This document shows positions 6,861-26,308 of a stretch of DNA of 26,786 nt, one piece after another; the stretch's first letter is position 1, and each line of letters begins with the position of its first letter. The stretch lies in UHGV virus genome UHGV-0243142. One strand, given 5' to 3'. Source of the stretch: a virus. A program made the position numbers and the translations under genes. Under the pieces are notes generated by a model. It was not told where the DNA came from and made no database searches. It worked only from the letters and a program-made list of their open reading frames with translations.

Positions 6861-6962
6861 TTTTTTGCATTTTATCGACATCATCATCATTCCCTTAACT
6901 TATTGATATTTCAGTCGTGAAATTATTCACGATGTCGAAATGGTTAAATATTGTTCATCATC

Positions 6963-7469
6963 ATGGATAACGAACTGAAAAACCTTCGCCTCAATATCAA
7001 TCAGCTGGCAGCGGTGACCGATCTTCATCGTCAGACGATCTCCAGCAGGCTGAATAACGTTGAGCCTGCTCCGGGCAGTAATTCTCGTCTCAAGCTTTAT
7101 TCTGTTGTCGATATTCTCCGGGAACTGCTGGGCCGGACCACGGCACCCGAGCTGGTGGATATCGATAAGATGTTACCGCCGGATCGTAAGGCATGGTTTC
7201 AGTCTGAACGCGAGAGGCTGAAATTCCAGCAGGAAACAGGTGAGTTAATCCCGGCATCGACAGTGACCCGAGAATTTTCATCGATGGCAAAAGCCGTCGT
7301 TCAGGTGCTGGAAACGCTGCCGGATATTCTTGAACGTGATTGCGCGATGACGCCTGCAGCTGTCGTTCGGGTGCAAAAAGTCATTGATGACCTGCGGGAT
7401 CAGATCGCCCTGAAGGTTGAGCAGGCAGATACGCCGGAACAGGAGGACAGTTCGCCAGAAGAGGAGTAA
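6963..7469 (+). CDS. Terminase small subunit (lambda Nu1-like)
   Basis: Position directly downstream of cos and upstream of the large terminase. N-terminal HTH-like region NELKNLRLNINQLAAVTDLHRQTISSRL and acidic C-terminus, as in Nu1. Start could instead be ATG 6951. Confidence 0.65.
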   Translation: MDNELKNLRLNINQLAAVTDLHRQTISSRLNNVEPAPGSNSRLKLYSVVDILRELLGRTTAPELVDIDKMLPPDRKAWFQSERERLKFQQETGELIPASTVTREFSSMAKAVVQVLETLPDILERDCAMTPAAVVRVQKVIDDLRDQIALKVEQADTPEQEDSSPEEE

Positions 7470-7472
7470 GCC

Positions 7473-24002: not shown

Positions 24003-25704
24003 TTACTACTCAATTATCACTAACCGGGGTAAAGAACTGGAGGCGGAGGCGCTGGCCAGTGGTCGCCTGATTGTACTGACTCACTTTGTGGTGGGTGACA
24101 GTAATGGCAAGCAGGTTAAACCTGATCCGTCGCAAATCCGGTTGATCAATGAAACGTACCGGGGAGATATCGCTGAGCTGGTGGTGTCACCGGAGCAGTC
24201 CACGCAGTTAATGGCAAAAATCGTTCTGCCGACCGGGGTTGGTGGATTCACCGTTCGCGAAGTCGGTTTAATGACTGACGCCGGAGAGCTTTACGCGGTG
24301 GCAAACTGCCCATCGATCGATAAGCCGGTTGGTGGTGTCAGCGTTAATATGCAGTTTCGCCTGGCGGTATCAGATACCTCAAATATCACGCTGAATGTTG
24401 CTACAGGTGACGGCTTATTCCTGCGCATTGACCAGAATCTGAAAGAGATAAAAGCGCGGGGCGCGGAAGCACAAAAAACGTCGCGTGAATCCATTGGTGT
24501 CCTCGATGGCACGACACAACAAAGAGGGCTGGTTCAACTTAACAGCGCGGTGAACAGCACCAGTGAAACGCAGGCAGCCACCCCTGCCGCAGTTAAGATC
24601 GCAATGGATAATGCGAACGCGCGGCTGGCTAAAGACCGGAACGGCGGTGACATTCCGAATGTCGCATTATTTCTACAAAACCTTGGTCTGGGAAAGACCG
24701 ACTCTCCAGAGTTTGGTGGACTGAAGGCACCCTCTATAACTTTACGGGATGGAAAGATAAGCCTCACCTCTTCTACAGATGGTACGACATTAGTCTTTAC
24801 CGTGAGTGGGGAGCCTGTTGCAGAAATAAAAGCGGGTAGCTTCTTTCATAAAAAAATTATCTCTGCAGGTGAGGTTCTTCAGTCACCAAAATACATCTTC
24901 AGGGATGGGGATATTATTTTCTACTCAGGTCCAAATAATCTTGTCATGCAGGTTGACGGTAAAGATGTTGCGACGCTAACGCCAGAAAATTTTTATCATG
25001 TCAAACAGGTCGCTGCCGCTGAATCCTTGAGTGCACCAAAAGTGATTCTCAGGCCTGGCGATGTGAACCTCGTTTCCGGGAAAAATAACCTGGTTATTCA
25101 GGTTGGCGGTAACGATGTTGCAACGCTAACGCCAGAAAATTTTTATCACGTTAAACAGGTAGCCGCGGCTGAATCACTTAAGGCACCAAAGGTCATATTG
25201 CGTGATGGCGATGTAAATCTAATTAGCGGCGCTAACAACCTGGTTATTCAGGTTGGTGGCAACGATATTGCCTCGCTGACCCCGGGAAATAATTTCTTTA
25301 AAGGAAAACTCACAGCTGAAAACAGTCTCCAGGTTGGTAGTACCTGCATCCTGGCTACTGACGGTAATTTAACAGGAAGTAAATGGGGCGGCTGGCTGGA
25401 CGCATTCATGAAAGACGGCATGTCTACTGACGGGAATGGGTTGTGGTGGGATGCTTTTTCATCTCAGCTCCAGTTCCGTGTCGGTGACTGGAACATACCT
25501 GATGTAGCAGGAGGAGCAGGCACTAGTGTGACTTTCCCCAAAGCGTTTAAAAATGGGTGCCTTATGGTTATTCCCATCCCTGGCGATGGCGGCTCCTCAG
25601 AGCAGATAGGAAGTCAGAGTTACTCAGCTTCTGGCGCGGTACTTCAAAAAGGTGCGAGTGATAAAAACCCTCGCTCCGGCAAATATCTGGCAATCGGATA
25701 CTGA
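23995..25704 (+). CDS. Tail fibre protein (P2 gpH / lambda Stf-like N-terminus)
   Basis: ATG overlaps the gpI stop. N-terminus MADYYSIITNRGKELEAEALASGRLIVLTHFVVGDSNG...VREVGLMTDAGELYAVAN is the conserved tail-fibre N-terminal (baseplate-attachment) domain. Tandem repeats lie in the shaft. Confidence 0.8.
   Translation: MADYYSIITNRGKELEAEALASGRLIVLTHFVVGDSNGKQVKPDPSQIRLINETYRGDIAELVVSPEQSTQLMAKIVLPTGVGGFTVREVGLMTDAGELYAVANCPSIDKPVGGVSVNMQFRLAVSDTSNITLNVATGDGLFLRIDQNLKEIKARGAEAQKTSRESIGVLDGTTQQRGLVQLNSAVNSTSETQAATPAAVKIAMDNANARLAKDRNGGDIPNVALFLQNLGLGKTDSPEFGGLKAPSITLRDGKISLTSSTDGTTLVFTVSGEPVAEIKAGSFFHKKIISAGEVLQSPKYIFRDGDIIFYSGPNNLVMQVDGKDVATLTPENFYHVKQVAAAESLSAPKVILRPGDVNLVSGKNNLVIQVGGNDVATLTPENFYHVKQVAAAESLKAPKVILRDGDVNLISGANNLVIQVGGNDIASLTPGNNFFKGKLTAENSLQVGSTCILATDGNLTGSKWGGWLDAFMKDGMSTDGNGLWWDAFSSQLQFRVGDWNIPDVAGGAGTSVTFPKAFKNGCLMVIPIPGDGGSSEQIGSQSYSASGAVLQKGASDKNPRSGKYLAIGY
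24886..25300 (+). repeat. Tandem direct repeat, 150 bp unit, about 2.75 copies, inside the tail fibre gene
   Basis: The anchor CAGGTTG(A/G)CGGTAA recurs at 24949, 25099 and 25249, an exact 150 bp period. The encoded 50 aa units read NLV(M/I)QV(D/G)G(K/N)D(V/I)A(T/S)LTPENFYHVKQVAAAESL.APKVILR.GDVNL.SG. Confidence 0.7.
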
Positions 25705-25705
25705 T

Positions 25706-26308
25706 ATGAAATCACAACATTATTACAGCGCGTCATGGCGTGCCTTTTTTGCACTTCCTGATGATGAGGATAAGATTCCTGCCGAATGGCCGGTGGATGT
25801 TTTACCCGTTACTGATATGGATTATCAGCAGCTGCAGGTGGGGGTTAAAACGGGGAAAATTATCGTTCCCGATGATACCGGGCACCCGGTATTGTCGTGG
25901 CGATATTATTACAGCGCTTCACGCCAGGGGTTTTTCCCTGTAGATGACAAGCGTGAGTACGAATCTGGCGCGGGATGGCCTGAGGATGCAATTCCTGTTA
26001 CGGACACTGATTATAAGGCACTCTTTGATGCTCAGGGTAAAGGTAAAATCATTAAGCCTGATGACAATGGCTATCCTGTAGCGTCAGAACCTGTGATTGA
26101 TTATGTTGCGACCGCCGAAGCTGAGCGCACCCGCAGAATGTCAGCATTGACACTTCGTATCAATAGTCTTGTTGAGGCGCAGGATGATGGTGATATTACC
26201 GATTCTGAACTGGCCGAGCTAAATGCACTCCGGGAATGTCGTACTAAACTGCGGCGCCTGGATTTGAGTAGTGCGCCAGATGTTGAGTGGCCAGCATTTC
26301 CAGCATAG
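25706..26308 (+). CDS. Tail fibre assembly protein (Tfa / P2 gpG family)
   Basis: Starts 2 nt after the fibre gene stop. C-terminus ELAELNALRECRTKLRRLDLSSAPDVEWPAFPA matches the conserved Tfa C-terminal motif. The N-terminal region is internally duplicated. Confidence 0.8.
   Translation: MKSQHYYSASWRAFFALPDDEDKIPAEWPVDVLPVTDMDYQQLQVGVKTGKIIVPDDTGHPVLSWRYYYSASRQGFFPVDDKREYESGAGWPEDAIPVTDTDYKALFDAQGKGKIIKPDDNGYPVASEPVIDYVATAEAERTRRMSALTLRINSLVEAQDDGDITDSELAELNALRECRTKLRRLDLSSAPDVEWPAFPA

Follow-up and report, generated by a model that had tools for sequence, protein, structure and literature searches.

The question raised by this locus is how a phage head of one lineage is joined to a tail of another. 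It concerns a stretch of 26,786 nucleotides of the virus genome UHGV-0243142 (hereafter the window), whose plus strand carries, from position 6963 to 26308, an uninterrupted late operon of tightly packed open reading frames (ORFs) leading from a small terminase (TerS) to a tail fiber assembly protein (Tfa). A preliminary description had read this block as a mosaic of lambda-type packaging and head genes and a P2-type contractile tail with a rearranged gene order, connected by three junction proteins of unclear family that would have to bridge a siphovirus-type head to a contractile tail. We conclude that the block very probably represents the virion-assembly late operon of a lambdoid temperate myovirus of the Chris1/yong2 group. 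The pairing of a lambda-family head with a P2-family contractile tail is real, but it is already widespread and unsurprising and does not mark a fresh chimera.

A family could be assigned to all 22 genes of the block by means of Pfam, PHROG, NCBIfam and a fold search (Table 1), and every gene that had been listed beforehand, from the Nu1-type terminase to Tfa, is present on the plus strand in the order given. Two relatives are very close at the DNA level: Citrobacter phage Chris1 (ON041214), with 94.7% identity over 91% of the length of the region, and a prophage of Escherichia coli SC476 (NZ_LR778151), with 96.9% identity and 91-92% covered. Both have the same gene order as the window from TerS to gpI and most of their proteins are 98-100% identical, but the homology stops near position 24687, in the middle of the fiber gene, so that the fiber C-terminus and Tfa differ. 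Hafnia phage yong2 (MZ516527) agrees with the window in head, neck and rearranged tail order, with protein identities of 45-79%, but has a different early region, a different host and a shorter Tfa. In a scan of one genome per species, the module was found in Citrobacter (99%), Enterobacter, Pantoea, Scandinavium, Erwinia, Rouxiella, Serratia and Escherichia. Members of Citrobacter, Enterobacter, Pantoea, Scandinavium, Hafnia, Rouxiella, Serratia and E. coli have the same head, neck and tail set, with protein identities between 99% and about 53%, and 170 IMG/VR contigs bear the module. Because of this conservation across genera and contigs, we regard the head-tail pairing as old and successful.

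Some relatives are decayed: the Rouxiella locus breaks off past the tube gene and carries inserted DNA between V and sheath, and the Serratia rubidaea locus has many frame breaks. The block in the window could likewise be the defective remnant of a prophage or a tail cluster of the tailocin kind, yielding no infectious virions. We consider this distinctly unlikely, as all 22 structural ORFs are intact and tightly packed, and the full head and packaging genes, a lysis cassette and a Q antiterminator are present in a window that excludes the integrase/immunity region. Moreover, the phage genome of Chris1 (95% identity) was deposited as complete, and a paper title describes this phage as transmitting a resistance determinant.

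The term ‘lambda-type’ head holds only in the broad family sense, which covers the gpA-type terminase, the portal and the FII-like protein. The head is the mEp460/Gifsy/F10 variant. In tblastn searches its nearest relatives were the siphoviruses with a ClpP-capsid fusion: mEp460 shares 71% identity with the window in the large terminase (TerL), 54% in the portal and 52% in the fusion, and F10 as well as the Stx and mEp phages resemble mEp460 in this match. By comparison, TerL is 25% identical to lambda A and the portal 22% identical to lambda B. The DUF1441 TerS, phrog_118 adaptor, scaf_prot_MCP1 fusion and phrog_122 cement protein are found in that order with 34-71% identity to mEp460, and their PHROG families are those of mEp460 and not those of lambda Nu1, W and D. 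For TerS, DUF1441/phrog_141 is the best family, followed by a weaker match to phrog_57, the lambda Nu1 family (E 9e-12). The adaptor shares phrog_118 with mEp460 gp03, while lambda gpW is found in phrog_75, so that the adaptor holds the gpW position but falls outside the gpW family at the PHROG level. A tblastn search for lambda C, D and E gave no match in the window, which encodes the ClpP-capsid fusion and a DUF2190 cement protein instead; Nu3 is missing as well and lambda FI has no counterpart.

The three junction proteins, which had been considered of unclear family, can all be assigned. The first belongs to phrog_82, the family of lambda FII itself, and matches the structure of gpFII (PDB 1k0h, E 0.0035). 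The second, of 218 amino acids (aa), falls in phrog_27, the lambda gpZ family, and the third, of 184 aa, in phrog_1072, which is annotated there as of unknown function. Neither of the latter two has a Pfam match. Their shallow family alignments (Neff 2-2.5) gave nothing in hhalign (probability <1%), neither for the 218-aa family against the single lambda gpZ sequence nor for the 184-aa protein against P2 gpR and gpS; the PHROG profiles and the fold search resolved both proteins where hhalign failed. The AlphaFold2 (AF2) model of the 184-aa protein is of moderate quality, with a predicted local distance difference test (pLDDT) score of 76 and low confidence for the C-terminal 40 residues. In Foldseek it matches 20 terminator structures with E-values from 3.5e-9 to 1e-3, led by the R2 pyocin collar PA0615 (E 3.5e-9) and the Mu terminator (5e-7), and also including T5 p142 and lambda gpU. 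There is also a weak direct sequence match to PA0615 (E 0.0075-0.01), and the gene occupies the head-proximal end of the tail genes. We identify the 184-aa protein as the tail terminator.

The neck thus consists of adaptor, FII, gpZ-like protein and terminator, ordinary parts that are used by siphoviruses and myoviruses alike, and the special bridging role that had been proposed for the junction proteins is not needed. P2 gpR (phrog_65) and gpS (phrog_26) were not matched among the window ORFs in PHROG; their roles are taken over by the phrog_1072 terminator and the phrog_27 gpZ-like protein.

The tail belongs to the P2 family. Homologs of V, W, J, I, FI, FII, E, U, X and D were all recognized by Pfam/TIGRFAM (10/10), and nine of these ten P2 proteins match in tblastn at 26-50% identity, with no match for E. 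At the end of gpE an open -1 frame, conserved in each of the 15 relatives checked, extends to the tape measure start. A -1 frameshift producing E+E′ would presumably operate here as in P2; no canonical X XXY YYZ slippery heptamer was found at the gpE end, and the sole candidate slip site is a conserved GTTTTTA run at 18294-18300.

The tail genes are ordered in three blocks: V, then sheath-tube-E-T-U-X-D, then W-J-I-fiber-Tfa. In the annotated P2 record, V-W-J-I-H-G is followed by FI-FII-E-E′-T-U-D with X in the O operon, which agrees with the P2 order given in the preliminary description and makes the difference real. Except for the position of V, the order in the window equals that of Mu, and the tail could therefore be regarded as a Mu/SfV-type module in its native order (sheath-tube-chaperone-tape measure-...-hub-V-W-J-I-fiber) and not as a rearranged P2 tail. 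This is extremely unlikely. Against Mu, tblastn gives just a V fragment (37% over 32%) and part of the fiber, whereas P2 matches V, sheath, tube, U, X, D, W, J and I in the identity range given above and P2-specific families are hit (Tail_P2_I, Phage_P2_GpU, Phage_tail_X, phage_P2_V). In addition, V keeps its upstream place beside the terminator, an arrangement shared with the R2 pyocin (PA0615, then V) and the relatives with P2 order. Beyond the V fragment, tblastn linked none of the sheath, tube or baseplate proteins to Mu L, M, P or gp45-48, and a Mu-derived tail is rejected on sequence.

The rearranged order of this P2-family tail is fixed in the clade. The sheath gene is next to V in all 72 IMG/VR loci that extend past V, and W is next to D in all 61 that reach D; the same order is found in 11 genome loci and in a prophage of an E. 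coli pig strain. The P2 order is kept by E. coli A19, whose ORFs are intact, and S. rubidaea, both of which share the fusion head and neck, and by every outgroup (705R4, Valp1, ZRG1 and P2). Since same-head relatives and all outgroups keep the P2 order, the order in the window appears, by parsimony, to be derived, namely by an interchange of the W-J-I-H-Tfa and FI-...-D blocks that left V beside the terminator.

Terminator-like hairpins with a 7-bp stem and a U-tail (-11.6 to -12.7 kcal/mol) are located at the borders of these blocks, after the capsid, V and tube genes. The relatives with P2 order have similar hairpins after V and after Tfa. The sheath leader TTTTTTTATGCCTGGAG is identical in the window, where it follows V, and in S. 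rubidaea with its P2 order, where it follows Tfa, and the W leader TAATCATGnACGGTG is likewise conserved across both gene orders; the leaders have travelled together with their genes. Recombination at short hairpin repeats is a plausible mechanism for the rearrangement. A wider proposal is that the split of the P2 V operon, with V by the neck and W-J-I-H-Tfa behind D, is a gene-order variant perhaps undescribed in print that arose by recombination between the similar hairpins bracketing the tail blocks, and that such hairpins act as module-junction recombination sites in lambdoid myophages. We put this forward tentatively and consider it rather doubtful. If true, it would also account for the end of head homology to relatives exactly at the post-capsid hairpin. 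No paper matched a phrase search for ‘lambda-like head’ plus ‘P2-like tail’.

Head and tail modules reassort between relatives, and to this extent the description of the block as a mosaic was correct; the mosaic is neither unusual nor fresh, as Chris1, yong2 and the IMG/VR contigs have it too. The head of the window is 52-71% identical to that of the siphovirus mEp460 versus 24-27% to myophage heads, while its neck and tail are 32-54% identical to those of the same myophages. Phage 705R4, an E. whittamii prophage and Valp1 share the gpZ-like protein, terminator, V and tail in this latter range, but have heads with separate C, D and E genes and tails in P2 order. A prophage of Erwinia endophytica has the neck and tail of the window at 60-76% together with a true lambda head (B 76%, E 74%), and the E. 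coli A19 prophage has the head at 80-85% and neck and tail at 39-62%, with DNA homology to the window stopping at the post-capsid hairpin. ZRG1 has the same head type and tail order as these myophages, but no tblastn match to the gpZ-like protein or the terminator. Around the recombination boundary between head and tail, the cement and FII proteins vary independently of both flanks.

Such uncoupling of head and tail similarity in A19 and the Erwinia prophage, and a head far closer to mEp460 than to the heads of the tail-sharing myophages, would also be expected if a siphovirus head had been newly joined to a P2-like tail in this strain, as a recent one-off event that needed novel adaptors. However, the pairing would then be confined to this strain, or its junction proteins would be without homologs elsewhere. 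Both points were checked and both are false: the entire head, neck and tail set is conserved over many Enterobacterales genera and in the IMG/VR contigs, and the junction proteins belong to common families (phrog_82 FII, phrog_27 gpZ and the terminator fold). A one-off chimera is thus very unlikely.

From the protein families involved, we can propose how a lambdoid myovirus of this kind would assemble its virion. Late transcription from upstream, antiterminated by Q, would read through the whole block. The gpA-type terminase would cleave concatemeric DNA at a lambda-like cos site, some 120 nt before TerS, and the lambda-family portal would pass the DNA into a capsid made of the self-processing ClpP-protease/capsid fusion and stabilized by the DUF2190 cement protein. 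The adaptor at the gpW position and the FII-family protein would then close the filled head. The tail would be made separately by the P2 route, starting from a baseplate of V, W, J and I with the D hub; the tape measure, with gpE/E′, would set the tail length, tube and sheath would polymerize and be capped by the 184-aa terminator, and the gpZ-family protein would complete the head-proximal tail end. Head and tail would finally join via FII and the terminator end. Because all genes lie in one late transcription unit, the rearranged gene order is probably without effect on assembly.

Some points weigh against this interpretation. The element is known here from its sequence, which makes the contractile particle a prediction; cleavage at cos, frameshifting into E′ and Q-dependent read-through are predicted steps; and the polarity of the rearrangement rests on outgroup parsimony instead of a tree.

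Table 1. Features of the window, with coordinates and supporting matches.
Feature	Position	Strand	Evidence and remarks
Q-type late antiterminator	2026..2736	+	PF06323 Phage_antiter_Q, E 2e-36
Terminator-like hairpin, about 90 nt past Q	2829..2850	+	-12 kcal/mol, z -3.3
cosN-like site GGGGGCGAGGACA/CGCGG	6832..6849	.	resembles lambda left end GGGCGGCGACCT/CGCGGG
Small terminase (DUF1441, Gifsy/mEp460 type)	6963..7469	+	PF07278 E 5e-46; phrog_141 E 7e-67
Large terminase, gpA type	7473..9590	+	PF05876 and PF20454
Head-tail adaptor, gpW position, 71 aa	9587..9802	+	phrog_118 E 8e-18
Portal, lambda family	9811..11322	+	PF05136 E 2e-87
ClpP-like prohead protease/major capsid fusion	11279..13381	+	NF045540 920 bits (cut-off 475); PF00574 and PF25209
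Terminator-like hairpin after capsid gene	13383..13400	+	-11.8 kcal/mol
Capsid cement/decoration protein (DUF2190)	13454..13789	+	PF09956 E 1.5e-20; phrog_122
Head closure protein, lambda FII family	13789..14145	+	PF05354 44 bits (cut-off 26); NF049848; phrog_82
Neck/tail-completion protein, lambda gpZ family (Neck1), 218 aa	14147..14803	+	phrog_27
Tail terminator (collar), contractile-tail type, 184 aa	14815..15369	+	phrog_1072
Baseplate spike/assembly protein gpV	15362..15979	+	TIGR01644 93.5 bits; PF04717; 32% to P2 V
Terminator-like hairpin, V/sheath breakpoint	15978..15995	+	-11.6 kcal/mol; 0/200 shuffles fold as well
Tail sheath (FI)	16018..17487	+	PF04984 and PF17482; 35% to P2 FI
Tail tube (P2 FII type)	17484..17990	+	PF04985 E 6e-20
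Terminator-like hairpin after tube gene	18014..18031	+	-12.7 kcal/mol
Tail assembly chaperone gpE	18036..18347	+	PF10109 E 2e-9
Putative -1 frame extension, P2 E′ analogue	18293..18475	+	overlaps gpE end and tape measure start
Tape measure	18450..20375	+	phrog_3654 and tape-measure PHROGs, E 2e-16; position
gpU	20372..20842	+	PF06995 E 5e-31
gpX	20817..21032	+	PF05489 E 3e-14; 50% to P2 X
gpD baseplate hub	21034..22152	+	PF05954 31.4 bits (cut-off 30.1); phrog_52 E 4e-95
gpW/gp25 baseplate wedge	22192..22545	+	PF04965
gpJ baseplate protein	22529..23449	+	PF04865
gpI	23439..24002	+	PF09684 Tail_P2_I, E 3e-41
Tail fiber, P2 H type N-terminus, variable C-terminus	23995..25704	+	PF12571, PF03406, PF21882
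Tail fiber assembly protein Tfa	25706..26308	+	PF02413 E 2e-23; start ATG 25706
DinI-family gene	26378-26620	-	PF06183, E 6e-18; directly after Tfa

Two gene starts deserve mention. TerS likely starts at the ATG at 6963 instead of the TTG at 6951, a shift of 12 nt, and the start of the protease/capsid fusion is uncertain (11204, 11279 or 11315).

The region upstream of the block is a typical lambdoid late region with RusA, DUF968, the Q antiterminator, a methylase, two holins, an endolysin and a spanin-like gene. Q lies outside the virion block but likely drives the late operon, and the hairpin past Q is, by analogy with lambda, a candidate tR′. An N6/N4 DNA methyltransferase gene (PF01555; 3319-4371) lies between the Q/tR′ region and the holins; a methyltransferase gene occupies the same position in yong2 and in the prophage of the E. 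coli pig strain. The two holin-family genes (PF16931 and PF05449) are adjacent and overlapping (4518-5172) and are followed by a glycoside hydrolase 19-type endolysin and a DUF2514 gene. Between this lysis cassette and cos, the stretch 6397-6764 holds a small lipoprotein gene (DUF6694, with a signal peptide ending in LVAGC) that looks like a moron and is followed by a strong two-way hairpin (6746-6764). At the cosN-like site, the local sequence GGGGGCGAGGACA/CGCGGAAAACGG parallels lambda GGGCGGCGACCT/CGCGGGTTTTCG, and the linear ends of the yong2 record map between 6844 and 6845; to judge by this resemblance, a cos mechanism is plausible for the phage.

At the other end of the block, the fiber C-terminus and Tfa (24687-26308) form a different cassette from that of Chris1 and SC476, likely the result of a host-range swap. 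An invertible fiber segment of the Chris1/Mu kind is absent from the window end, where the DinI-family gene follows Tfa; in Chris1 this place is taken by an invertase and an inverted alternative fiber cassette. A LexA-box-like sequence CTGgatgtatataCAG is found at 26631-26646, in the upstream region of this gene. The Tfa protein contains a motif of about 60 aa in two tandem copies (YYSAS..FF..PVTD.DY..L..GKII.PDD.G.PV).

Within the head module, the adaptor and portal genes (9587-11322) are 79-89% identical to those of C. pasteurii, C. youngae and Chris1 (79-87% for Chris1), against 93-100% for most genes on either side; those of C. murliniae are 99-100% identical to the window. This stretch is a small local recombination patch. 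In the Rouxiella sp. T17 remnant, two reverse-strand genes (11168-12612 of that locus) are inserted exactly between V and the pre-sheath hairpin, and all tail genes past the tube are missing (beyond 14578). In S. rubidaea NCTC12971 (9330-20530 of its locus), the genes for the gpZ-like protein, terminator, sheath, tube, tape measure and D align in at least two frames each, which reflects either prophage decay or assembly indel errors.

Names can now be given to two genes that PGAP/GenBank call ‘hypothetical’ in hundreds of prophages of Enterobacterales: the 184-aa protein is a contractile-tail terminator and the 218-aa protein a gpZ-family tail completion protein. These names and the rearranged order are the sole, modest additions; the rest is textbook phage modularity. 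The group offers natural pairs for the study of module exchange and gene order, with the same head on P2-order and rearranged tails and the same tail on fusion-type and true lambda heads. Its members also carry cargo, such as the ars operon of Chris1.

Compared with known systems, the prophages of E. coli A19 and S. rubidaea NCTC12971 share the ClpP-capsid fusion head (70-85%), FII, gpZ-like protein, terminator and V with the window, but their order is V-W-J-I-fiber-Tfa-sheath-tube-E-T-U-X-D and their tail proteins are just 39-70% identical. P2 (Peduoviridae) has homologs of V, W, J, I, H (N-terminus), FI, FII, E, U, X and D (26-50%) and an E/E′-like overlapping frame. In the window, however, X lies between U and D, the V operon is split and regulation is lambdoid (Q) versus Ogr in P2. 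None of the P2 head genes (Q, P, O, N, M, L) matched the window by tblastn; with no P2 head and with late control by a lambda-type Q, the virus falls outside the Peduoviridae.

Lambda and mEp460 share the gpA terminase, the lambda-family portal, the FII and gpZ families and the cosN-like sequence with the window. The phage mEp460 (also the cdtI/Gifsy-2 type and Pseudomonas F10) additionally shares the DUF1441 TerS, the phrog_118 adaptor, the ClpP-capsid fusion and the DUF2190 cement protein. In contrast to lambda, the window has no C, Nu3, D, E, FI or gpU, and a contractile tail replaces the V-G-T-H-M-L-K-I-J set. The best structural matches of the 184-aa protein, R2 pyocin PA0615 and the Mu terminator, are about 21% and 14% identical to it, respectively. 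The R2 pyocin has neither head nor neck; in its cluster PA0615 immediately precedes the V homolog, just as the 184-aa gene precedes V in the window.

The HAP1-like and related myophages include Vibrio phage Valp1 (a protelomerase phage like VP882, PhiHAP-1 and VHML), E. coli phage vB_EcoM-705R4 and Pseudomonas phage ZRG1. Like the window, Valp1 and 705R4 encode a lambda-family head, FII- and gpZ-family (phrog_27) proteins, a phrog_1072 terminator, V and a P2-family tail. Unlike the window, these two and ZRG1 have true lambda heads with separate C, D and E genes, with identities to lambda of 64% (B) and 56% (E) in 705R4, 51% and 33% in Valp1, and 24% and 32% in ZRG1; their tails are in P2 order, and some are linear-plasmid prophages. 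HAP1-like phages resemble P2 solely in the V and F tail operons (Lavigne et al.; PMC2771037). Phages with lambda-type heads on P2-type tails, among them the HAP1-like phages (PMC2771037), Valp1, vB_EcoM-705R4 and ZRG1, form an established class.

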